Shown here piece by piece: positions 10,281-20,000 of a DNA stretch of 20,000 bases. Numbering within the stretch: the first letter of the stretch is position 1; the number at the start of each line of letters is the position of its first letter. The position numbers were made by a program, and so were the translations under genes. The notes beneath the pieces are model-generated. The model did no database searches. It saw nothing but the letters and a program-made list of their open reading frames with translations, and was not told the origin of the DNA. The DNA lies in IMG/VR virus record IMGVR_UViG_3300000304_000038; one strand, 5' to 3'. This DNA is from an uncultured virus (IMG/VR IMGVR_UViG_3300000304_000038) (Duplodnaviria; Heunggongvirae; Uroviricota; Caudoviricetes).

Positions 10281-10892
10281 TTATTTTATCAAAGATTTTT
10301 GTTCATATTCGAGATAAATATCCATTAGTTGATTCCATTGTTCATTATAACAACGTAAAGAATCAATCATAATATCTGCTAATTGATGAATCTCCCATTG
10401 AGCATGAACGTTTCTACGCTGTTCAAGGAGATTGAAGAGAGAGCGCACATTTATTTTCATATGTAAATTTGTTTTTGTCGCTTCTGGCAAGATAAAACGA
10501 GCATCTTCCGCTCTAACGCCATTAGCAAGCATTTTTTTATATTCGTCAGCAATATAAGCCATATCTATTTGATACTGATATAGAAGATTTTTATCATTTT
10601 TGATGATTGGAGGAATTACATACCAATCTTCACTATCTAGTTTATATTTATTATAACGTTGTGATTCGACGCAATAAGAAGCTATGCGATGACGTGTCAG
10701 TTGAGCTAGACAACTTCTAGAGATACCTTCAATTTTGAAAGTCACATCAGCAAATTCGTGGACACTGTGGCGATCTAAAATACAACGTTTCACTCTATTA
10801 TATTGCACATCGTTTTTCCGAGTGCTTTGTCCAGCAGCTAACGAAATTGCATCAATAGGTTTTTCTGTCGCGTCAATAACAATTACTTTCAT
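10281..10892 (-). CDS. thyX: FAD-dependent thymidylate synthase
   Basis: ISRSCLAQLTRHRIASYCVESQRY signature, EDARFILP, HAQWEI. Start taken at the ATG overlapping the upstream TGA. Confidence 0.95.
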   Translation of the reverse strand: MKVIVIDATEKPIDAISLAAGQSTRKNDVQYNRVKRCILDRHSVHEFADVTFKIEGISRSCLAQLTRHRIASYCVESQRYNKYKLDSEDWYVIPPIIKNDKNLLYQYQIDMAYIADEYKKMLANGVRAEDARFILPEATKTNLHMKINVRSLFNLLEQRRNVHAQWEIHQLADIMIDSLRCYNEQWNQLMDIYLEYEQKSLIK

Positions 10893-11908
10893 TGGACACA
10901 TCCTCCTAATATATAGTCTAAAGAAATTCTATCTAAATCCCAATATGGTATTCTTAGCAATTTTATATTTTTTTCTTCAGCATAATTGTCTTTGATTGTA
11001 TCACGAACGATTCGTTTTTGAAAAGATTCTAAATTATTCCAGCCCCCTGTCGGTTTGAAGTGTTGCTCTCCGTCAAATTCAATCAATAAATTATATTTAG
11101 ACAAGAAGAAATCAAAACGTAGCTTTTTCCCTGTTTTTGGATTTAGACAATCATCAAAAGAATATTCTGATTCATAATCTATATTATTACTATCCAGTAT
11201 TTTTTTGATTTTTTGCTCTCCTAATGAATAAATACGAAGTTCCTGTCTTCCGTCTACTCCATTATACAAAACGCTTCTCAAACGAGTATAAAAGAAAACG
11301 TCTAATTCAGAATTATAAAATTTTCCATACCTAACTGGATTATTCTTTTTGTCTAAAATAGGAGAAAGTTCTTCTACAAATAAAATATTTTCTTTTATCC
11401 AATCTCCTTCATTATATTTTCTGTTATTATGAGCAACATCTTGAATAACTTCAATACGTCGTTGTTTCCTATGTTGAGGTCCCATTGTCACTCTATCGTG
11501 GATAGCAGAATTGAGTAAAACGTCAAAAACTTCATTAGAATAAATATCTTTGACTCGTAAAGTTCTTTTTCTTTCTCCTGAAGCTGTTTCTTTTGGAGTA
11601 CCTTCACTAATATAAATAAGAGTATTGCTTGGATTCACAAATTCTCCTAGAGAAAAATTATAGTGCCTTCTGCTTTGATACGATAATTCTCGCCTAACAG
11701 ATGGAGCATGTTTTACTGTCCCAGCGCGTACACTTCCTACTGATGCTGAAAATATATTTTCTCCATCAGGAGCATCTATGTCTTTTACTAAGATACGTCT
11801 TTCTTTTACGCCGGATAAAGATATATGAGGTTCTGCTTCCCCAATATAAACAAGATTGCCTTCTTTGTTTACTGGTTCATTTTCTTTGTATATTATTTTT
11901 CTTCCCAT
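10889..11908 (-). CDS. Free-standing homing-type endonuclease (three N-terminal repeats plus PD-(D/E)xK/Vsr-like domain)
   Basis: SLGEQKI...LRFDFFL...IEFDGEQHF...RDTIKD...LLRIPY; repeats YKENEPVN/FSLGEFVN/YNEGDWI; AT-rich. Confidence 0.8.
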   Translation of the reverse strand: MGRKIIYKENEPVNKEGNLVYIGEAEPHISLSGVKERRILVKDIDAPDGENIFSASVGSVRAGTVKHAPSVRRELSYQSRRHYNFSLGEFVNPSNTLIYISEGTPKETASGERKRTLRVKDIYSNEVFDVLLNSAIHDRVTMGPQHRKQRRIEVIQDVAHNNRKYNEGDWIKENILFVEELSPILDKKNNPVRYGKFYNSELDVFFYTRLRSVLYNGVDGRQELRIYSLGEQKIKKILDSNNIDYESEYSFDDCLNPKTGKKLRFDFFLSKYNLLIEFDGEQHFKPTGGWNNLESFQKRIVRDTIKDNYAEEKNIKLLRIPYWDLDRISLDYILGGCVQ

Positions 11909-11969: not shown

Positions 11970-12905
11970 TTACTTGCTTGTCTGGACAATAGGCTGAGAA
12001 CCTTCAGGCACAACTACTAGATTACCATTCTCGCCAATCTGCTGGAGAGTCTCGTAATAGCGCTGCTGAAGAACCTCGGGAGTTAGAGACTGAGTAAGAA
12101 TTGCATTAGCATTGGCCTCACCCTCTGCATCGATTGCTTTCGTCTCAGCCTCGATTCGAGCGGTCTCCTGACGGTTCGTAGCGGCAGTCTGCTCAACCTG
12201 TGCGGACTGTGCGGCCGCATATGCCTCAGTGATGGAATCCGCATAACGAATATCCTGAACGCTCACCGACTCAACCACTACACCACTTTCAGCCCAGCGC
12301 TCAGAAAGGGTCTGCTGAATGGAGCTTGCAAAAGACTCCTTGTCAGTTAGGAGCTGAATCGTAGAGAATTGACCCGCACAGTCACGAGTGGTCTGACGAA
12401 CGTCATTGGAGACATAGCTCGCAACATAAGCCTCCTGAGTGCCATAGTCCGCATAAAGCTGCTCGACCGCATCGGGATTGATGGAATAGATTACCTGAAC
12501 GTCACAGTCAGCCTTGGTACCAGAAGAGTCGTTGATGGTAACGGTAGCTCCGTTGTAGGAACCATTGTCATAGGTATACTCGGCATCACGATAGAAGTTG
12601 ATAAGACGATTGCGAATGTCCCAGTCTAGCGCATCCTGCCAAGGAGCCTTGAATTGAATGCCAGCCTCGGTCGTATATCCCGCAAGAGAGCCACCGAAGT
12701 TGCGAAGCACGACCGCCTCGCCAACGTCCTGAGTGTAGACGCACTGCGAACCAATCATAATGACGCCGAGCACAACAGGAATTGCGGCCTTCCAATAGCC
12801 ACCCTTGCTATCTGTCTCAGCATTATACTTGCTGATAGCGATTGATACTGGAATGGCCGCAAGAGCAACTAGCACTCCAAGTACCATCATAACAATACCG
12901 AACAT
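11970..12905 (-). CDS. SPFH/Band-7/prohibitin-family membrane protein
   Basis: Two N-terminal TM segments, GEAVVLRNFGG, GIQFKAPWQ, GVVVESVSVQDI, Ala/Glu coiled coil, SLTPEVLQ. Confidence 0.9.
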   Translation of the reverse strand: MFGIVMMVLGVLVALAAIPVSIAISKYNAETDSKGGYWKAAIPVVLGVIMIGSQCVYTQDVGEAVVLRNFGGSLAGYTTEAGIQFKAPWQDALDWDIRNRLINFYRDAEYTYDNGSYNGATVTINDSSGTKADCDVQVIYSINPDAVEQLYADYGTQEAYVASYVSNDVRQTTRDCAGQFSTIQLLTDKESFASSIQQTLSERWAESGVVVESVSVQDIRYADSITEAYAAAQSAQVEQTAATNRQETARIEAETKAIDAEGEANANAILTQSLTPEVLQQRYYETLQQIGENGNLVVVPEGSQPIVQTSK

Positions 12906-12950
12906 ACTCCTTGTTTCTCCTTGTCTCTCTTGGACAATAATATCTATGTA

Positions 12951-13039
12951 GGCGGAAACAAGAGGTCACGCTCCCCAACGAGTCTCCCCGTCACACCGCT
13001 TTCGAGGCGGGTGCAGCACGCTTGTCTGCTTTTGTTTCC
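12951..13039 (-). tRNA. tRNA-Ser(CGA)
   Basis: GGAAACA/TGTTTCC acceptor, loop CT-CGA-AA, long variable arm, G73; ends CC-TA. Confidence 0.85.
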
Positions 13040-13050
13040 GTAATATCTTA

Positions 13051-13139
13051 TGGCGGAAGGAGGATGTAACGCTCACCATACCCTTTCGGGCACCAACCGC
13101 TTTCCAAGCGGCGCTGAAGACTTCTTCAGTTCACCTTCC
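13051..13139 (-). tRNA. tRNA-Ser(GGA)
   Basis: Loop TT-GGA-AA, long variable arm, G-CCA. Confidence 0.88.
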
Positions 13140-13142
13140 ACA

Positions 13143-13232
13143 TGGCGGGGTAATAGGATTACGATTCCTATGGACGCAAGGCCCACGCTGGACTTAGCAG
13201 GTCCGCCCAAGTCCCCCTTGGTTATCTACCCC
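13143..13232 (-). tRNA. tRNA-Ser(GCT)
   Basis: Loop CT-GCT-AA, long variable arm, G-CCA. Confidence 0.88.
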
Positions 13233-13252
13233 ATATATTTTATATTATATAC

Positions 13253-13567
13253 TTACCAATAGTAAGTTGTAAAGACAAATCTTGGTTCAGGCATCTCAAC
13301 ATCAGCCGCAAAGACCCTATGAAATGCCACCCATGTCTTGTGCTTCCACTCTTGGATAAGATTAGAATTTAGCATCGCTCGATTGATATCATCTTCAGTA
13401 AGTCTAACACCGAAGAAGATATTGCTATCATCCTCATAGGCGTTTAGGTCGATTATCTCGTCATAATAGGGGTCTCTCTTATCTTGAAAGTCCTCACATA
13501 TAAGCACACATTTTGACTGAGGTAAAGTGATACCATACCCGAGAAACCCCTCAATTTCGACACTCAT
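13253..13567 (-). CDS. Hypothetical protein (104 aa) within the tRNA array
   Basis: Own promoter and AAGGAG SD. Confidence 0.8.
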   Translation of the reverse strand: MSVEIEGFLGYGITLPQSKCVLICEDFQDKRDPYYDEIIDLNAYEDDSNIFFGVRLTEDDINRAMLNSNLIQEWKHKTWVAFHRVFAADVEMPEPRFVFTTYYW

Positions 13568-13599
13568 AAAAATAACTCCTTTCCTCTTTTGACATATAC

Positions 13600-13629
13600 A
13601 TTATACACCAATAGAAGGAAAGGAGTCAA
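13600..13629 (-). promoter_or_regulatory. Promoter TTGACT-18-TATAAT embedded in an RBS-pairing inverted repeat
   Basis: -35 at 13624-13629, -10 at 13600-13605. Confidence 0.78.
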
Positions 13630-13638
13630 GAAAAATTA

Positions 13639-13713
13639 TGGAGTGCGGCCTTGGAGTCTAACCAAGCTAAACGATTTTGCAGACCGTTGTATAATACGCC
13701 CTACCCGCCGCAC
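13639..13713 (-). tRNA. tRNA-Cys(GCA)
   Basis: Loop CT-GCA-AA, U73-CCA. Confidence 0.88.
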
Positions 13714-13716
13714 ACA

Positions 13717-13791
13717 TGGAGGTCTGCCCGAGTGCTGCCCTCGGAATTGAACCTTACGAAAGTTCTGTAATAGCTGTTTTACTAGCAGACC
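13717..13791 (-). tRNA. tRNA-Thr(CGT)
   Basis: GAACT-TT-CGT-AA-GGTTC arm, CCA end. Confidence 0.85.
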
Positions 13792-13801
13792 AATTATTCA
13801 A

Positions 13802-13876
13802 TGGAGCCGATTCCGGGTGACGCTCCCGGCGTCTTTGCCTTACCACGGCAATGTTTTGCTGCTAAACTAAATCGGC
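13802..13876 (-). tRNA. tRNA-Thr(GGT)
   Basis: TTGCC-GT-GGT-AA-GGCAA arm, GCC acceptor start, CCA end. Confidence 0.9.
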
Positions 13877-13879
13877 GTA

Positions 13880-13953
13880 TGGTGCCCAGTGAAGGTTATG
13901 CTCCTCCGTCTAAAGCTTGTAAGGCTATCATTCTACTATTGAACTAACCGGGC
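13880..13953 (-). tRNA. tRNA-Val(TAC)
   Basis: Loop CT-TAC-AA, A-CCA. Confidence 0.88.
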
Positions 13954-13956
13954 ATA

Positions 13957-14032
13957 GGTGGAGCTGGTGGAAATCGAATCCACGACCTATCGCTTGCAAG
14001 GCGATTGCTCGTCCCAACTGAGCTACAGCCCC
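13957..14032 (-). tRNA. tRNA-Ala(TGC)
   Basis: G3.U70 pair, loop CT-TGC-AA, canonical TTCGA; ends CC-TA. Confidence 0.93.
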
Positions 14033-14035
14033 ATA

Positions 14036-14113
14036 TGGTACCCACGGCATGACTCGAACATGCGACCTACTCATTCGTAGTGAGGTATTCTAAATCCGCT
14101 GAACTACGTGGGC
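14036..14113 (-). tRNA. tRNA-Arg(ACG)
   Basis: Loop CT-ACG-AA, TTCGA T-loop, CCA. Confidence 0.92.
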
Positions 14114-14454
14114 ATAATATCATCAAACTCGCCCGCAAGATAGAGCTTGGGAATGTTGTGTCCGGGCCTCAACTTGCGGTCGGTCAGATATTCAATGTTC
14201 ATCCAACTGCCATCTTTTGCTCTAAGAAAGCAATGAAACATCTTAGTATTCATATCATAGGTATATTTAGAATCCAAAAGGAGTATCTGGTTCGTATAGG
14301 CGACAATGATTTTATCTTTGCTCTCCTCCAAGGCCATGTCCGCAGTTTCAAGATTGTAGGAGACTCCATTCGCCGCATCGATATTTATTTGCGGATATAG
14401 TCTCCATCTTGCGTTTTTGACAAGCGGACCGTCCTCGAAATAAACTATTAGCAT
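14104..14454 (-). CDS. Hypothetical protein (116 aa); stop codon lies inside tRNA-Arg(ACG)
   Basis: AAAGGAG SD; fills the gap between two tRNAs. Confidence 0.8.
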   Translation of the reverse strand: MLIVYFEDGPLVKNARWRLYPQINIDAANGVSYNLETADMALEESKDKIIVAYTNQILLLDSKYTYDMNTKMFHCFLRAKDGSWMNIEYLTDRKLRPGHNIPKLYLAGEFDDIMPT

Positions 14455-14480
14455 AAGATACTCCTTTGATAATTTTTATA

Positions 14481-14554
14481 TGGCAGGCCCGGAAGGTACC
14501 GCCCCCTCGCTACGAAGTTTGGAGCTTCGCGTGCTCCTATTACACCACGGACCT
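14481..14554 (-). tRNA. tRNA-Trp(CCA)
   Basis: CGAAG-CT-CCA-AA-CTTCG arm, G-CCA. Confidence 0.9.
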
Positions 14555-14557
14555 GTA

Positions 14558-14631
14558 TGGCTGCTCTTCTAGGTGCCGCCCCTAGGACTTAACATCCAAA
14601 GTGTTAGGTTTTACTGTTAAACTAAAGAGCA
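14558..14631 (-). tRNA. tRNA-Gln(TTG)
   Basis: U1-A72, TAACA-CT-TTG-GA-TGTTA arm, G-CCA. Confidence 0.88.
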
Positions 14632-14634
14632 ATA

Positions 14635-14708
14635 TGGCTGGACTTAAAGGTGCTGCCCCTTTTTCTATTGAGTCAGAGTCAATCGTTTTACTGTTAAACT
14701 AAAGTCCA
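14635..14708 (-). tRNA. tRNA-Gln(CTG)
   Basis: U1-A72, loop CT-CTG-AC, G-CCA. Confidence 0.9.
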
Positions 14709-15446
14709 ATCATCATCTGAAATGCTACAAATCTCTCTCTTTTTAAATGGAAGATTATAAAATATACACCATTTCCTAATTGTGTTATCTCTAACACCAT
14801 ATTCTTTTCCTATTGCAGTGAAAGTTTGAGTTCTAATTTTAGATTTTAATTCTTCTCTAGAAGGTCTTTCTACTTTTCTTCTATTCTCCGCACTACATTC
14901 TGGACATAAAAGACTATAATCTGTTTTTAATTCTTTTCCACATTCTTGGCAGTATCTTTTTGGTCTTTCTATATAGGTTTTATTTTTACTTCCAAAAGTA
15001 GGTAATTGCCTATCGCAATTTGGACATACCCAACGAAGATTTTCAATTCTATTGTCTGTATGGTCTCCATTGATATGGTCTAATGTCAGAGTCAATTCTT
15101 TGTTATTCCATACAGGAGGCAATCCACAGATAGCACATTTATACTCTAATAAATCATGTTGCTTAATATATCTCTTAATATAGTTCATGGAAGCACTAGA
15201 ATGCTCGCAAAAAGAATTCTCAAAAGTTCTTTCTTCTTTTTTTGATGCCATAGCGCAAAAATGAGAATAGTCTATATTATTATCTTCTAATACAGCTCTA
15301 ACTATATCGTTTTGTTTTCCTCCGCTAACACACTGATAACCTATTTTTCTTTCAACTTCCTTAAAAGAAAACGAATTTGCAACAATTTCTCTTAATTCAT
15401 CAACGGGTATTTGTGAGACTAAGCTATTCATTGATTTCGACCGCAT
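14694..15446 (-). CDS. HNH homing-type endonuclease
   Basis: CAIC...LTLDHINGDHTDNRIENLRWVCPNC, a second Zn finger, and a C-terminal HTH-like segment; AT-rich; AAAGGA SD. Confidence 0.9.
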   Translation of the reverse strand: MRSKSMNSLVSQIPVDELREIVANSFSFKEVERKIGYQCVSGGKQNDIVRAVLEDNNIDYSHFCAMASKKEERTFENSFCEHSSASMNYIKRYIKQHDLLEYKCAICGLPPVWNNKELTLTLDHINGDHTDNRIENLRWVCPNCDRQLPTFGSKNKTYIERPKRYCQECGKELKTDYSLLCPECSAENRRKVERPSREELKSKIRTQTFTAIGKEYGVRDNTIRKWCIFYNLPFKKREICSISDDDWTLV

Positions 15447-15562
15447 AAACAAAATCCTTTCTTAGACAATAATATGTTGAGTTATATAAATACAAATTTA
15501 AAAAAGAGATTTTTATTTATAACGGCCCATAGATTTTCCTTTTTATAAATGAAAGTGCGAAA

Positions 15563-15697
15563 TTACTTATTCTGAGCCGCTTCCAGCTTCCAAATCTTTC
15601 TCTGAGTCTTCTGGAGAACGCCAGTCCCCTCAGAGTTCTTGCCGTTCAGAAGTAGACGCTGGTAGCGTGCCTTTAGAACCTCGATATCATTTGACAT
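15563..15697 (-). CDS. 44-aa hypothetical protein (MSNDIEVLKARY...)
   Basis: AAAAGGAG SD upstream of the ATG at 15697; the longer ORF-track start overlaps a tRNA. Confidence 0.65.
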   Translation of the reverse strand: MSNDIEVLKARYQRLLLNGKNSEGTGVLQKTQRKIWKLEAAQNK

Positions 15698-15733
15698 ATA
15701 TATTCTCCTTTTGTCTCTTGGATAATGACCATA

Positions 15734-15825
15734 TGGTGCGACCGACTCGACTTGAACGAGCAATGTGGTTTCTAAGCCACGCTACTTTAGGAGAGTAGTG
15801 CCTTATCCGATTAGGCTACGGCCGC
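15734..15825 (-). tRNA. tRNA-Arg(CCT) with long variable arm
   Basis: CTACT-CT-CCT-AA-AGTAG arm; extra arm GTGG-CTTAGAAA-CCAC; TTCAA T-loop; A-CCA. Confidence 0.88.
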
Positions 15826-15830
15826 ATAAA

Positions 15831-16039
15831 AAAAGAATACAATATAGAGAAGAGGGAGATAGGACTTTCATCTTACTTGGGCTTTCTCTGTATTATGGGA
15901 CTTATTGTATGCGCGCTTTTATTCGTCCCTGTCGGACCTCGGTGTTACTTATTCCGGCTTTTCACACCTACTACCTTCACCAATGCTGCTTCATAGCCGC
16001 GTATTCACCCAAAGCCTATTCTCTATATTGTATTCTTTT
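15831..16039 (-). ncRNA. Candidate ~209-nt structured RNA closed by a perfect 21-bp stem
   Basis: 15831-15851 and 16019-16039 are exact reverse complements; no credible ORF; strand inferred from the array. Confidence 0.55.
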
Positions 16040-16045
16040 GTAAAA

Positions 16046-16210
16046 TGTCAGCCTGTCCCCACCGACTTCTGACCCGACAAGCCATGTCTCCCAAGAGGTT
16101 GAGTGTGCGGCAAGAAGAAGCTAGCTAGTCTCCTTCTCACGGTCCTAACCAACGGTTACTAGTACGTTGGCGGATAAGCCTTTCACCAGCTCTCTGTGTC
16201 CCATCCATGA
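16046..16210 (-). ncRNA. Candidate ~165-nt multi-hairpin RNA
   Basis: GC-rich intergenic stretch with hairpins CCAACG/CGTTGG, GAGAAGGAG/CTTCTTCTT and GGCTTGTC/GACAGGCT. Confidence 0.45.
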
Positions 16211-16217
16211 TTATATA

Positions 16218-16559
16218 TTACGCTTTTTCCTTCAACTTGTCTACAACAAAATTGTATTCCTTTTCAGGAAGAAAACTTCTGGGTGCGCACTCGAAGAATA
16301 GGTCAACTTCCTCGGGAGACAATTCAACTCCCATGTAAAGCATCTTGTAACAATTGTGAGCAAAAGCGTATCTATCCTGAAATACGCTCTCATAGGGAAT
16401 TATTGCATCATCAAGTCTATCCAATAGAGAAATAGCTTTGCTGTATGCCTTTCTCTCTTCTCTTGAGAGAGAGGAGAGGTTCTTGTCTTGCGGGATAAAG
16501 TCATAACAAAAATCTTCGACAGCTCTCCGCAAGTCACAAAGCTTTGAATACTTACTCAT
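16218..16559 (-). CDS. Hypothetical protein (113 aa; likely start MSKYSKL)
   Basis: GAGGAG SD; ATG overlaps the upstream gene end. Confidence 0.75.
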   Translation of the reverse strand: MSKYSKLCDLRRAVEDFCYDFIPQDKNLSSLSREERKAYSKAISLLDRLDDAIIPYESVFQDRYAFAHNCYKMLYMGVELSPEEVDLFFECAPRSFLPEKEYNFVVDKLKEKA

Positions 16560-16842
16560 TTCTCTCCTCTTCTTGCGGCCAGAAATCCTCGTTGGAATAG
16601 CATAGCTTTGCACCGGGACAAAGATAGACCCAACAGTTGCGCTCGGTAGAATACCAGCGGCTAAGTCCGATAGTACCAAATGCGACTATTATCTCTTCAT
16701 CTCTTGAATCAACATGACAACAGCCTTTGATAAGACAGTATACGGCGGCTCGCCGCACCTTGAAGGAAGGATGGGAATAGGAAAGTTGATATAGATGGAA
16801 AAGAGGCGTGCCCTTTCGCCGCAAATAATCAAACTCACTCAC
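16552..16842 (-). CDS. Hypothetical protein (96 aa, GTG start)
   Basis: AAAGGA SD; coupled to the next ORF. Confidence 0.65.
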   Translation of the reverse strand: MSEFDYLRRKGTPLFHLYQLSYSHPSFKVRRAAVYCLIKGCCHVDSRDEEIIVAFGTIGLSRWYSTERNCWVYLCPGAKLCYSNEDFWPQEEERNE

Positions 16843-16871
16843 TACTTCATCCTTTCTCTTGGATAATTGAA

Positions 16872-16953
16872 TGGTAGCCGCACCCGGTTACGCTCCGAGG
16901 TCTGATGGCTGAGAACCATCCGGGCTGCTATTACCCNNNNNNNNNNTGCGGCC
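16872..16953 (-). tRNA. tRNA-Glu(CTC), contains a 10-N assembly gap
   Basis: GATGG-TT-CTC-AG-CCATC arm, GGCCGCA/TGCGGCT acceptor, CCA; Ns at 16937-16946. Confidence 0.85.
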
Positions 16954-16956
16954 ATA

Positions 16957-17031
16957 TGGTAGCGGATGGGGGTTACGCTCCCCCTTCTCTGGCTTGAAAG
17001 GCCAGCGAATTTACTATTGTTCTAATCCGCC
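16957..17031 (-). tRNA. tRNA-Glu(TTC)
   Basis: CTGGC-CT-TTC-AA-GCCAG arm, CCA. Confidence 0.9.
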
Positions 17032-17655
17032 AATAAAATATTTCCAAAAATATCCATATGCGCTTTTTCTTTTACCTTTGATTACTTCGGTAATATGCTG
17101 TGTTTTTCTTTCAGATCCTAAAAAACGTCCAGCCTCTTTTATAGATTCAAATATTTTCAATACTTGAAAAGTTTCTTTATCGCACATTGCAACCTTGTGA
17201 CTAAATAGCTTTTTTGCTTGTTTGCTTTGAGATAAAATTTCTACTCCATATTCTTTACAAGCTGTTCTCACGGTTCGTTCATTACAACCAAAATAAGAAG
17301 CAGTTTGTTGTTCATTGAGTAATTCAAGATATTTATTTGCTATTTCTTTATAGTTATAAAATTGTTTTCCATCTCCCCCACGAGTAGCATTATAACCATA
17401 ATGATAAGTGTTTAGTTTATCTATCCAATATTCTTCTCTGGCAGGAGCTTCTTCTGGAGAACATTCTTCTAATTCTTCAATAGAAAAATGTTCTACTCCA
17501 TATTTATTCATAGCACTATAAAGAGGACGTTTTTTGCGTCTTATTCTTTGTCTCTCTTTCTTGTGTTCTTCAAAACGGTCTTCTATCGTTTTATTAGTTT
17601 TACCAACATACTGTTTGCCATTTATATCATTAGTAATTACATAAATAAAGGCCAT
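17014..17655 (-). CDS. GIY-YIG homing-type endonuclease with C-terminal NUMOD1/IENR1-like module
   Basis: FIYVITN...QYVGKT...RFEEH...REEYWI...GYNATRGG; C-terminal FESIKEAGRFLG...KSAYGYFWKY. Confidence 0.9.
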   Translation of the reverse strand: MAFIYVITNDINGKQYVGKTNKTIEDRFEEHKKERQRIRRKKRPLYSAMNKYGVEHFSIEELEECSPEEAPAREEYWIDKLNTYHYGYNATRGGDGKQFYNYKEIANKYLELLNEQQTASYFGCNERTVRTACKEYGVEILSQSKQAKKLFSHKVAMCDKETFQVLKIFESIKEAGRFLGSERKTQHITEVIKGKRKSAYGYFWKYFIGGLEQ

Positions 17656-17765
17656 GATTCCCAACTTTCTACCCAACATCTGAATAAACAGATGGGCAGG
17701 TGGTTGGGTTTATTCACTTTTCACTAAGCTAGCTACTTCTTAGCTAGCCTATCTGTTATTAACAA

Positions 17766-17841
17766 TGGTCGGACTAGAAGGTTCTGCCCCCTCTCCACAC
17801 CGCCCCAAACGGTGGATGCTACTGTTAAACACCATAGTCCG
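17766..17841 (-). tRNA. tRNA-Pro(TGG)
   Basis: C1-G72, CACCG-TT-TGG-GG-CGGTG arm, A-CCA. Confidence 0.9.
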
Positions 17842-17966
17842 TTTTCTATACCAAATGGGGCGCAGCGTTTATTACCTTCATACTGACCTTCCTGCGCATC
17901 ATTGTTTATAGTGGTGCTCAACCACTGAGAACACTTGATTTGTTTGGCCCTTTGGTACCTAAATTA

Positions 17967-18039
17967 GGAGCGGCTGACCAGACTCGAACTGGCACTAACG
18001 ACTTGGAAGGACGTGGTGCTACCGTTACACCACAGCCGC
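17967..18039 (-). tRNA. tRNA-Gly(TCC)
   Basis: GCG acceptor start, loop CT-TCC-AA, U73; ends CC-TA. Confidence 0.92.
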
Positions 18040-18042
18040 ATA

Positions 18043-18118
18043 TGGGGTGACTATTTGGATTTGAACCAAAGCTAAGTGAGTCACAGTCACTTGTGCTGAC
18101 CTCTACACTATAGCCACC
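18043..18118 (-). tRNA. tRNA-His(GTG)
   Basis: Encoded G-1:C73, loop CT-GTG-AC, CCA. Confidence 0.93.
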
Positions 18119-18122
18119 AATA

Positions 18123-18197
18123 GGAGCGGCACAGGGGCTATGCTCCCCTCACTTTTGCGTTGGCAACGCAATGCTCTTCTGAATGAGCTAGTGCCGC
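18123..18197 (-). tRNA. tRNA-Gly(GCC)
   Basis: TTGCG-TT-GCC-AA-CGCAA arm, U73; ends CC-TA. Confidence 0.88.
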
Positions 18198-18207
18198 ATA
18201 TAAGACA

Positions 18208-18284
18208 TGGCGCGAATGGCGGGACTTGAACCCGCGACCTCCTGATTGACAATCAGGCGTTCTAACCAGCTGAACTACACCCGC
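18208..18284 (-). tRNA. tRNA-Asp(GTC)
   Basis: CCTGA-TT-GTC-AA-TCAGG arm, G-CCA. Confidence 0.92.
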
Positions 18285-18288
18285 ATAT

Positions 18289-18362
18289 TGGTTGCAAGGT
18301 CCGGTAACGCTCCGGCTTGTAAGCGCTTATGAGACGCTTCGAGAACTTTCCTCCCCCTTGCA
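18289..18362 (-). tRNA. tRNA with CAT anticodon (Met; Ile2 not excluded)
   Basis: AGCGT-CT-CAT-AA-GCGCT arm, U1-A72, short D-arm, A-CCA. Confidence 0.8.
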
Positions 18363-18365
18363 ATA

Positions 18366-18441
18366 TGGTCGCAGTGACTAGAGTCGAACTAGCTGTCTCT
18401 GGCTTATGAGGCCAGCATGGAAACCGTTTCACCCCACTGCT
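18366..18441 (-). tRNA. tRNA-Met(CAT), initiator-like
   Basis: A1.G72 mismatch, CTGGC-CT-CAT-AA-GCCAG arm, A-CCA; lacks the full three G-C anticodon pairs. Confidence 0.82.
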
Positions 18442-18447
18442 ATATAT

Positions 18448-18549
18448 GAGAGAACAACCTTCTACAAGGCACCAGCGAAGGCCAAGTGACAAGCTTGACT
18501 CTTTCCTTGCGGGAGCACTGGTATCTGGGGTGTGACCCTTTGCTCTCTC
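18448..18549 (-). ncRNA. Candidate ~100-nt structured RNA at a transcript 5' end
   Basis: Closing stem GAGAGAGCAA/TTGTTCTCTC; inner ACCAGTG/CGCTGGT; GCAA tetraloop. Confidence 0.5.
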
Positions 18550-18561
18550 TTGTCGATGAAT

Positions 18562-18591
18562 ATTATACAACAAGTCAAAGACTGTTGTCCA
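18562..18591 (-). promoter_or_regulatory. Promoter TGGACA-18-TATAAT
   Basis: -35 at 18586-18591, -10 at 18562-18567; the spacer is itself a hairpin. Confidence 0.65.
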
Positions 18592-18593
18592 TA

Positions 18594-18727
18594 ATATTTT
18601 TGGAAAACACTAGTTGAAATCCCAAGCTTATGCGAACTGGTGGCAATGCGACTAATGCTCTCCAAAAATATGACTGATTTTTTGATCTTTCCACTGTAGC
18701 AGGAACTCTCTTGGAAAAAATCAGTCA
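18594..18727 (-). ncRNA. Two abutting long-stem hairpin elements (18594-18671, 18671-18727)
   Basis: 21-bp stem with three G.U pairs only on the minus strand, and a perfect 13-bp stem. Confidence 0.5.
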
Positions 18728-19236
18728 AAAACCATTAGAAACCGCTGCGACGTTTCAGGGTATTTTACTCGGTGCCCCGCGTCCAAGTATCCGAGACCGG
18801 TTTTCCTCTGTTTTAGTGAGTGACAAGTAAACCGCGTTGAAACCCCATACCTCCAACTCATTCTTTCTTCCAGTAGTCCGATCGGCTTAGTCACTATGGA
18901 AGCGAAGAACCTAAGAGAGGAGAATTCGTTTTTGGACAGAACCAATCCTCAAAGCATAACTGTTGGTGGTGAGGAAGTAAAAAATAGCATTAGTCTTGCA
19001 GGAAGTGGCTGTTGCTTTCTTTACACCTCGTCGTTCGGCGTATCAGTTTTTTACTGACACGCTGCCTCATGCCGCAAACCCCTATGGCGCGACAACTATT
19101 CGAACCAGCCCTACGCGAGTGACGCATTCTCCTCTTTCGAGTAACCCATTCTCGGGCCTTATGCTACCAGAGTTATTCGCTCTGACAGGGAACTTCGAAT
19201 CCGCTGCTCTCCACTCAGAACCGTCTTATAGCCAAA
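18728..19236 (-). ncRNA. Candidate large (~500 nt) structured ncRNA in the tRNA array
   Basis: No credible ORF; many hairpins and several long-range helices (see findings). Confidence 0.6.
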
Positions 19237-19239
19237 ATA

Positions 19240-19313
19240 TGGTGGTCTCGACAGGTAACGCTCCTGTGTTTTGGGTTTATCAGACCCATGTACTACTTTT
19301 GTACGACAAGACC
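19240..19313 (-). tRNA. tRNA-Ile(GAT)
   Basis: TGGGT-CT-GAT-AA-ACCCA arm, A-CCA. Confidence 0.9.
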
Positions 19314-19315
19314 AA

Positions 19316-19581
19316 TGGTACGCCCGCTCAGGATCGAACTGAGATCGAAGGATTACTTACTACGTCGCTTTCACATCGTAGTCTGGACTTTATCTTCTTC
19401 TCTTGGAGAAGCCTCGTGTAAAGTCTCTACACATAGATTCAAGAAGAATCCTTGCTCGGTATTGGCGTATTGCATTTGCAACTTAGCTTCCACCGACTTA
19501 GCGAGGTTTTCCACTATTGGTTGCCCAATAGCGCTCCTAATTAGTCAAGAGTCCCCTATTCTACCATTGAACTACGGGCAC
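19316..19581 (-). tRNA. tRNA-Lys(CTT) split by a group I intron (exons 19548-19581 and 19316-19355)
   Basis: Joined exons give a complete cloverleaf: GTGCCCG/CGGGCGT acceptor, GGGGA-CT-CT|T-AA-TCCTT arm, TTCGA, A-CCA. Confidence 0.9.
19356..19547 (-). mobile_element. 192-nt ORF-less group I intron at tRNA position 35/36
   Basis: 5' exon ends in U paired to G in P1 (CUCU|UGA...UUAGGAG); P7 elements GUAGAGACUUU and AAGAUAAAGUCC; terminal G. Confidence 0.9.
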
Positions 19582-19593
19582 GTATAAACAATA

Positions 19594-19678
19594 TGGTCCC
19601 GCCTCTAGGTACCGCCCCTAGCCAGTCATAGACACAGGTTTTACAGACCTGCTCACGTCTTTAGTGATATACGACGGG
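19594..19678 (-). tRNA. tRNA-Tyr(GTA) with C1-G72
   Basis: CAGGT-CT-GTA-AA-ACCTG arm, small variable stem GTC-TAT-GAC, A-CCA. Confidence 0.85.
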
Positions 19679-19681
19679 ATA

Positions 19682-19757
19682 TGGTGGAACCCCCGGTAAT
19701 CGAAACCAATCCTTGGGTTTTTCAGACCCACGTGCGCACCAGCTACACCAGAGTTCC
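19682..19757 (-). tRNA. tRNA-Phe(GAA)
   Basis: TGGGT-CT-GAA-AA-ACCCA arm, A-CCA. Confidence 0.92.
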
Positions 19758-19760
19758 ATA

Positions 19761-19854
19761 TGGTCGGACGTCTGTGATTCGAACACAAGATTCGCGCTAA
19801 TCTGGCACTAATACACTTTATAGGAGTGTTGTTTTTCTACTAAACTAACGCCCG
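19761..19854 (-). tRNA. tRNA-Ile(TAT)-like with long variable arm and C33
   Basis: CGGGCGT/ACGTCCG acceptor, ACACT-CC-TAT-AA-AGTGT arm, extra arm GTGC-CAGATTA-GCGC, TTCGAAT, A-CCA. Confidence 0.8.
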
Positions 19855-19861
19855 AGAATAT

Positions 19862-19959
19862 ATCAGCACCTTTTATTCTTTCGCACTCGTGCTACTTGAA
19901 TCTTTACCGTCGCTGGAACTCGTTCCTGTCATGTCTGACTTTGACTCGGCGGGTGCATC
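19862..19959 (-). ncRNA. Candidate ~100-nt structured RNA at a transcript 5' end
   Basis: Closing GCACC/GGTGC; hairpins GTCA-GACA-TGAC, GGAA-CGAG-TTCC and GCA-CGAG-TGC. Confidence 0.45.
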
Positions 19960-19971
19960 TTCAACAATTAT

Positions 19972-20000
19972 ATTATCCTCTTTTTCAAACTTGGTGTCAA
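19972..20000 (-). promoter_or_regulatory. Promoter TTGACA-17-GATAAT driving the tRNA/ncRNA array
   Basis: Consensus -35 at 19995-20000 and a 5/6 -10 at 19972-19977. Confidence 0.6.

Follow-up and report, generated by a model that had tools for sequence, protein, structure and literature searches.

How do three genes in one phage tRNA array come to take their stop codons from inside the tRNA gene that follows? The question is posed by a stretch of 20,000 nucleotides (nt) from an uncultured virus of the Caudoviricetes (IMG/VR record IMGVR_UViG_3300000304_000038), referred to here as the window, in which a small open reading frame (ORF), ORF116, an HNH endonuclease gene and a GIY-YIG endonuclease gene all lie on the minus strand together with the transfer RNA (tRNA) genes behind them. 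An earlier note on this DNA placed the three stops inside tRNA-Arg(ACG), tRNA-Gln(CTG) and tRNA-Glu(TTC), with overlaps of 10, 15 and 18 nt, and ARAGORN, Rfam and the sequence itself bear this out exactly. The same note saw in the arrangement a brake by which tRNA maturation limits toxic nucleases. It is suggested here that the overlaps are probably a structural by-product of how a phage tRNA array is built, and no sign is seen of the overlap itself being selected as a dampener of nuclease synthesis.

At the first junction, ORF116 (14104..14454, minus strand) encodes a small conserved protein of unassigned family and runs into tRNA-Arg(ACG) (14036..14113, minus), a canonical cloverleaf with encoded CCA that is called by ARAGORN and scores 57.3 bits against the Rfam tRNA threshold of 29 bits. 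With an oblique marking tRNA position +1 (here 14113), the junction reads ...GAT ATT AT/G CCC ACG TAG, such that the protein tail ...IMPT* is completed by the tRNA-Arg acceptor stem and the stop TAG is U8-A9-G10 of the tRNA. The HNH gene (14694..15446, minus; 250 amino acids from the ATG at 15446, with a TTG at 15452) meets tRNA-Gln(CTG) (14635..14708, minus; U1-A72, G73, encoded CCA, 39% G+C, 49.5 bits), a complete cloverleaf by Rfam that ARAGORN does not call at default settings. This junction reads ...GAT GAT GAT /TGG ACT TTA GTT TAA; tRNA positions 1-15 code for W-T-L-V-stop of the HNH protein and the TAA sits in the D-loop. The GIY-YIG gene (17014..17679, minus; 221 amino acids from the ATG at 17679, 213 from that at 17655) meets tRNA-Glu(TTC) (16957..17031, minus), which has a non-canonical T-loop (AGCGUAA) and encoded CCA, is called by ARAGORN and scores 50.6 bits in Rfam. 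Here the sequence is ...TAT TTT ATT /GGC GGA TTA GAA CAA TAG (TAA), positions 1-18 of the tRNA code for G-G-L-E-Q-stop, and the TAG again lies in the D-loop with TAA as the next codon. All three ORFs are free of any earlier in-frame stop before the tRNA, and each junction belongs to the class described in PMC4131195, namely a coding sequence (CDS) upstream of a valid same-strand tRNA with its stop inside the mature tRNA.

What allows an ORF to extend to the edge of the next tRNA, or past it, is that an in-frame stop is soon met in the 5' third of the tRNA: U8-A9-G10 (UAG) would serve in one frame, and the A/U-rich D-loop would supply the stop in another. A survey of 170 distinct tRNAs, taken from the window and all fetched loci and comprising 510 reading frames, found that the first in-frame stop ends at most 24 nt from +1 in 262 frames (51%), against 30% in shuffled tRNA bodies, and that TAG occupies positions 8-10 in 86 of the 170 tRNAs. 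Of 18 tRNAs in the window, 13 close the frame through positions 8-10 at nt 10, and 12 close the frame that begins at +1 at nt 15-24. All three window ORFs enter their tRNAs in these two stop-near frames, which at n=3 is not significant by itself. Given this quick stop, an ORF that loses its own stop codon, or never had one, gains just two to five residues. The array extends over about 13600-19900 on the minus strand, with 12 tRNAs by ARAGORN and 17 by Rfam (relaxed ARAGORN settings regain four of the Rfam-only tRNAs); in almost every one the CCA is encoded and followed by TAT or TATG, and the spacers between tRNAs are 2-10 nt. It is proposed that mobile or dispensable ORFs would come to occupy the few-nucleotide spacers of such a dense same-strand array, the presumed occupants in this instance being two AT-rich free-standing homing-endonuclease genes and one small ORF.

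Both nucleases fall into homing-endonuclease families. The GIY-YIG protein matches Pfam GIY-YIG (1.5e-11), carries a NUMOD-like DNA-binding tail and belongs to PHROG 314, and the HNH protein, laid out as an N-terminal domain, an HNH core and a C-terminal zinc-ribbon/helix-turn-helix module, matches Pfam HNH_3 at 26.5 bits (cutoff 24.8) and PHROG 10822 at 9e-42; the PHROG homing-endonuclease family matches of the two are 7e-26 and 9e-42. Both genes are free-standing, that is, located between genes with minus-strand tRNAs on both sides, and their G+C content of about 31%, compared with 40-53% in the flanks, makes them foreign by composition, in agreement with recent insertion.

The protein ends at the junctions are informative as to how the overlaps arose. 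Homologs of the GIY-YIG protein begin at MAFIYVITN, corresponding to the window ATG at 17655, and end one to eight residues past a conserved W-x-[YFW] (WKYL*, WKFI*, WVYI*). The window protein ends WKYFI followed by GGLEQ* from the tRNA, its own stop missing exactly at the tRNA boundary. Eight GIY-YIG homologs of 50-60% identity carry their own stop codon, and the overlap is therefore not needed by this family; in seven of the eight the next tRNA lies 63-259 nt behind the stop, with a promoter-like TTGACA...TATAAT in three of these gaps, and for the eighth (L001) no tRNA is called within 300 nt. In three homologs (L001, L005, L008) the HNH C-terminal module has the ending E-W-x-x-[IV]; that of the window protein is D-W-T-L-V, at the same length, the Trp codon being U1-G2-G3 of tRNA-Gln. 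Judging by these comparisons, the junctions appear to keep near-native protein ends, which fits insertion or deletion events that survived with protein and tRNA both intact. Separately, in-frame TAG codons were seen in GIY-YIG homologs of other phage contigs (L027 1504-1542, L029 1423-1590, L030 1501-1686), and a tRNA with anticodon CTA lies just upstream of the GIY-YIG homolog in L030 and in L035 (1314-1405); the combination suggests amber suppression or TAG recoding in those phages.

Metagenomes hold what appear to be alleles with and without the inserts. Logan contigs from four gut-metagenome runs were aligned to 13600-16900, a range which avoids a run of N and leaves the GIY-YIG junction outside. 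Chicken-gut runs X1 and X2 and a further gut metagenome run, X7, yielded contigs 95-99% alike, and the gut RNA-library run X18 mostly more diverged pieces. In a contig of run X1, 13883-14120 is joined to 14471-14822 with five other letters between, so that 14121..14470, and with it ORF116, is absent; the last 7 nt before tRNA-Arg(ACG) are common to the ORF116-bearing and ORF116-less alleles. A putative HNH-less allele is represented by a contig of run X2 that skips 14640..15563 (joint 14639 to 15564, side 84), and the contigs of runs X1 and X7 that skip 14468-15562 (joints 14467 to 15563) are also apparently HNH-less. HNH-less and HNH-bearing contigs coexist in run X2. The X2 skip takes out the HNH gene and nearly all of tRNA-Gln(CTG), as read from the two sides of the joint, not from the letters between. 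One contig of the RNA library (X18) spans 14479-15320, across the HNH/tRNA junction, although it may be DNA and is no proof of a single transcript.

The frequency of such overlaps was assessed in a pool of eight annotated phage tRNA regions (T5, T4, GodonK, mistaenkt, Enterococcus phage 113, Rctr197k, Erwinia IT22 and Vibrio phi-Grn1), which is small and biased in that three regions were chosen as HNH homologs and T5 and T4 from a paper. The pool excludes two mistaenkt CDS, considered doubtful, that extend 35 and 51 nt into tRNAs, a GodonK junction interrupted by a CDS on the opposite strand, and one misc_feature. A script count over all fetched loci, in which 6 of 40 junctions outside the window overlap, was not used for tests because the loci had been picked via nuclease homologs and include near-duplicates. 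In bacterial genomes a 2014 survey counted 250 overlaps of this kind in 115,660 t(m)RNA genes, a share its authors call "exceedingly small" (PMC4131195). Setting the overlaps against chance, as the earlier note had proposed, gives a divided answer: they are far commoner than in bacteria, but about usual for phage tRNA arrays, with 6 of 38 CDS-to-tRNA junctions overlapping in the pool and 4 of 12 in T5 (RefSeq) alone, from which the window share of 3 of 5 does not differ significantly (p=0.31). The T5 overlaps are hegD into tRNA-Gln(CUG) by 23 nt, hegC into tRNA-Ser by 14, T5.069, a T5orf172 nuclease-like protein, into tRNA-Asn by 24, and an ORF of 27 amino acids into tRNA-Met by 6. In the IMG/VR contig L006 the HNH homolog extends 6 nt into tRNA-Tyr. 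Of 12 nuclease genes lying tight against a tRNA, seven overlap it and five abut it at +1 to +6 nt (L008 +1, mistaenkt +1 and +6, T4 segB +5, L001 +5). The common factor of nuclease genes is adjacency to tRNA and not overlap as such, as insertion at tRNA-gene boundaries would give. Of all ORFs, nuclease genes occupy this position most often, probably owing to such insertion, and, as with T4 SegB, they may carry adjoining tRNA genes along.

Several observations weigh against the overlaps being a mere by-product. The window share of 3 in 5 is higher than that of the pool (one-sided p=0.054). Outside the window, overlap occurs in 4 of 8 nuclease-gene junctions and in 2 of 30 junctions of other CDS (one-sided p=0.012, or p=0.037 when the two doubtful mistaenkt CDS count as overlaps), and this enrichment is also predicted by a selected brake. 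Furthermore, all four full-length homologs of ORF116 end in PT, the acceptor-stem reading; the ORF116 overlap has been maintained in relatives and is not transient. Compared across homologs, the MPT* tail looks like a preserved native end rather than random read-through. The six homologs in question, of 72-94% identity, come from a large protein collection; ORF116 has no match in Pfam or PHROG, and no relative was found by an IMG/VR pattern scan or in JGI metagenome contigs. It has a ribosome-binding site, AAAGGAG, 7 nt ahead of its ATG. Local tblastn detected distant homologs in the IMG/VR contigs L001 and L005 (36-38% identity), which end MPY* with their own TAA and are followed not by a tRNA but by a promoter-like site and ROOL RNA.

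If ORF and tRNA are co-transcribed, ribonuclease P (RNase P) cutting at +1 would remove the last two to five codons and the stop. On such a shared precursor, normal termination would be open to ribosomes done before processing, whereas those arriving later would run into a non-stop end and be passed to trans-translation; this conversion may dampen nuclease output. The brake goes a step further and holds that the position of the stop within the tRNA is maintained because maturation by RNase P then yields non-stop nuclease messenger RNA (mRNA), tagged and decayed through transfer-messenger RNA, and the toxic endonuclease stays scarce. As a selected function this is unlikely. The idea is not new: the removal of the stop by tRNA maturation as a limit on the nuclease was put forward in print for T4 segB and T5 in 2008 (PMC2330249), where it is proposed that maturation of tRNA-Arg cuts the segB mRNA between the last and the stop codons, "facilitat[ing] mRNA degradation", with inactive protein as the result, and the same limit is said to have been proposed for the T5 tRNA-region endonucleases; Hudson, Lau & Williams (2014) include a section on non-stop mRNAs from t(m)RNA overlaps (PMC4131195). 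The idea has thus appeared in print independently, which counts in its favour, but the relevant passages of both papers offer no RNA or protein support, and a literature search for an experimental test of the brake turned up none, subscription journals being mostly outside its reach. Both array nucleases overlap their tRNA, the layout recurs in three nuclease genes of T5, in GodonK and in L006, nuclease genes are enriched among the overlaps outside the window, and a consensus scan detected nothing terminator-like separating the three ORFs from their tRNAs. The scan placed the only promoter-like sites upstream of the ORFs at 20000-19972 and at 18591-18562 (18562..18591, minus; 11 of 12 matches, upstream of an array segment), which is weak evidence at 16 sites found against 12.3 expected. 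When the three junctions were folded with 60 nt of upstream mRNA, the acceptor stem formed in each minimum-energy structure; the z-scores (+1.30, -1.89, +0.63) are unremarkable and say nothing on processing. The earlier note's brake is partly supported: its geometry and logic hold, and the lack of a terminator-like site and the nuclease enrichment are in its favour, but selection for it is opposed on several counts: ORF116, which is not a nuclease, overlaps likewise; the eight GIY-YIG homologs keep their own stops, seven of them 63-259 nt ahead of the next tRNA and three across a promoter-like site; the five abutting nuclease genes, set against the seven that overlap, stop 1-6 nt short of the tRNA and not inside it; and translation during transcription could finish before processing. 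Both the layout and the brake idea are already known, from T5 and T4, and the limiter is a known hypothesis that the present sequence data would neither prove nor exclude.

Two further explanations make the overlap a seam. In one, the nuclease gene and the tRNA behind it form a single mobile cassette, tRNA-Gln(CTG) having arrived with the HNH gene, such that homing then spreads or overwrites the tRNA along with the nuclease gene. The X2 contig, in which nearly all of tRNA-Gln(CTG) is skipped together with the HNH gene, is what this would predict, but that joint comes from a metagenome, at 85% likeness, and a diverged resident tRNA may lie between its sides. tRNA-Gln(CTG) has the lowest G+C (0.39) of five tRNAs scored in 14000-17100 and adjoins a nuclease gene of 31% G+C; immediately behind comes another Gln tRNA whose D-arm is identical, although an exact search of IMG/VR for the shared D-arm motif found it absent. 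The T5 order is likewise hegD, tRNA-Gln(CUG), tRNA-Gln(UUG), but hegD is only marginally similar to the window HNH protein (E=0.005, C-terminal module). SegB is reported to spread surrounding tRNA genes (PMC2330249). The contig alignment covers the HNH junction, and this explanation is considered rather improbable. In the other, a dual-coding junction welds nuclease and tRNA into a mobile unit, and an RNase P timer confines nuclease synthesis to a short co-transcriptional window, the tRNA being the phage's gain and the nuclease kept harmless; the letters do serve twice, since U1-G2-G3 of tRNA-Gln also encodes the conserved Trp in the HNH tail, and the tRNA-Arg acceptor stem with U8-A9-G10 supplies the last codons and stop of ORF116, yet this reading as a whole is held to be distinctly improbable. 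That the overlaps are an annotation artefact, whether through an earlier true end of the ORFs, through pseudogene tRNAs or through a TAG without stop function, is very improbable indeed. ARAGORN at default misses tRNA-Gln(CTG), two of the three tRNAs have a non-canonical T-loop and some GIY-YIG homologs elsewhere contain in-frame TAG beside a tRNA(CTA), but the ORFs contain no in-frame stop ahead of the tRNA, each of the three tRNAs is a complete cloverleaf of 49.5-57.3 bits, the HNH gene ends on TAA, and in the GIY-YIG gene the codon right after the TAG is TAA. Use of TAG as a stop is normal in the window: it ends 7 of 27 ORFs tallied (15 end on TAA and 5 on TGA), and five of the seven lie outside the array, several with a Shine-Dalgarno sequence directly after, so that reassignment of TAG in the window was rejected.

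The remaining features of the locus are as follows. The window is part of a large phage genome that codes for topoisomerase II, thymidylate synthase, PhoH, dCMP deaminase and several HNH genes; against GenBank phages, megablast of 13500-18400 gave no match and blastn only tRNA-sized or HNH-core pieces. Between ORF116 and tRNA-Gln(CTG) lie tRNA-Trp(CCA) (14481..14554, minus; non-canonical T-loop, 41.7 bits in Rfam, anticodon from the sequence) and tRNA-Gln(TTG) (14558..14631, minus; non-canonical T-loop, 46 bits, called by relaxed ARAGORN), and an ORF of 44 amino acids (15563..15697, minus; ATG at 15697, own TAA) is found directly upstream of the HNH cassette. A fourth ORF that ends 23 nt inside a tRNA, tRNA-Asp (18573..18262, 103 amino acids, TTG start), was treated as spurious because it crosses another tRNA (18441..18369) and has no family match. 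A run of ten N at 16937-16946 breaks a tRNA-like gene (about 16870-16952) directly behind tRNA-Glu.

By eye, about half of the array tRNAs have a non-canonical T-loop (AGCGUAA, AGCAUAG or GGCAGCA in place of UUCGAAU) and a D-loop without the GG pair. They lie at 13802-13953, 14481-14708, 16957-17031, 18123-18197 and 19240-19313 on the minus strand, have lower Rfam scores (41-53 bits) and in several cases are missed by ARAGORN; the tRNA-Gln(CTG) of a relative (L005 3882-3956) is also of this type. Two more cloverleaf-like sequences were recognised by eye on the minus strand, at about 17770-17846 (anticodon TGG) and about 19590-19668 (anticodon GTA, long variable arm); both have the odd T-loop and encoded CCA and neither is called by ARAGORN or Rfam. 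At 19316-19581 (minus) the anticodon loop of a tRNA-like gene is interrupted by about 190 nt, which puts its two halves apart; the call from the intron mode of ARAGORN is tRNA-Leu(aag) with intron 33,190, and Rfam at E<=1 found no group I intron there or elsewhere in 12500-20000. Outside the array, an AT-rich HNH gene (10889-11908) precedes a short thymidylate synthase ORF (10281-10901, 206 amino acids) with a 13-nt overlap, and another (1580-2653) precedes a topoisomerase II large-subunit ORF (97-1590) with an 11-nt overlap, all on the minus strand; nuclease insertions may have divided the thymidylate synthase and topoisomerase II genes. Three relatives have ROOL RNA in their tRNA arrays, at 305-318 bits (L001 3372-3940, L004 6076-6632, L005 4858-5421); Rfam at E<=1 found none in the window, where non-coding unannotated stretches occur at about 15830-16220 and 18580-19240. 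L006, the 173-kb IMG/VR phage contig whose HNH homolog overlaps tRNA-Tyr, also holds, inside its tRNA array, a match to bacterial RNase P RNA class A (352-648; 112 bits, threshold 100; 297 nt matched to a model of 367 positions).

Should tRNA maturation indeed limit a homing endonuclease, phages would have in it a simple, widespread means of living with selfish nucleases, and nature would offer an example of translation competing with tRNA processing. The window does not open a new kind of system. It adds three well-documented junctions, apparent coexisting alleles with and without the inserts and one conserved small-gene overlap, and its study adds a first small count suggesting that nuclease genes end inside tRNAs more than other ORFs do.

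Comparison with known systems places the window among similar arrangements. The overlaps compiled by Hudson et al. (PMC4131195), among them Carsonella smpB-ssrA, share with it an upstream CDS in the same orientation whose stop is inside the RNA gene, as well as the inference that maturation leads to a non-stop mRNA, but they are found on bacterial chromosomes, where they are rare and have no nuclease link, whereas in phage tRNA arrays such overlaps are common. In Gordonia phage GodonK (NC_048176), which has an actinobacterial host, the HNH protein gp206 is homologous to the N-terminal part and core of the window HNH protein (38% identity, 1e-26), without the C-terminal zinc-ribbon/helix-turn-helix module; its gene lies between tRNA-Leu (3 nt before) and tRNA-Glu and, as in the window but with a different tRNA, ends 10 nt inside the latter, on TAG. 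T4 SegB is likewise a GIY-YIG protein encoded in a tRNA cluster, the T4 cluster being co-transcribed, and its homing has been shown experimentally, whereas the window nucleases are predicted from their genes; the segB stop is 5 nt upstream of the tRNA body and the cut proposed for it is therefore in the leader, not at RNase P +1 inside the ORF. T5 (NC_005859) differs in phage and host, near-identical pieces of the window having been found in chicken-gut and other gut metagenome runs, and its tRNA-Gln(CUG) is annotated as a pseudogene, whereas that of the window folds completely; the proteins are at most marginally related, and hegD was rejected as a close relative of the window HNH gene, at E=0.005 over the C-terminal module only. 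Nevertheless, hegD, hegC and T5.069 are, like the window genes, free-standing HNH or GIY-YIG-like genes between same-strand tRNAs whose stops lie inside the next tRNA (by 23, 14 and 24 nt), and just as hegD is followed by tRNA-Gln(CUG) and tRNA-Gln(UUG), the window HNH gene is followed by tRNA-Gln(CTG) and tRNA-Gln(TTG).

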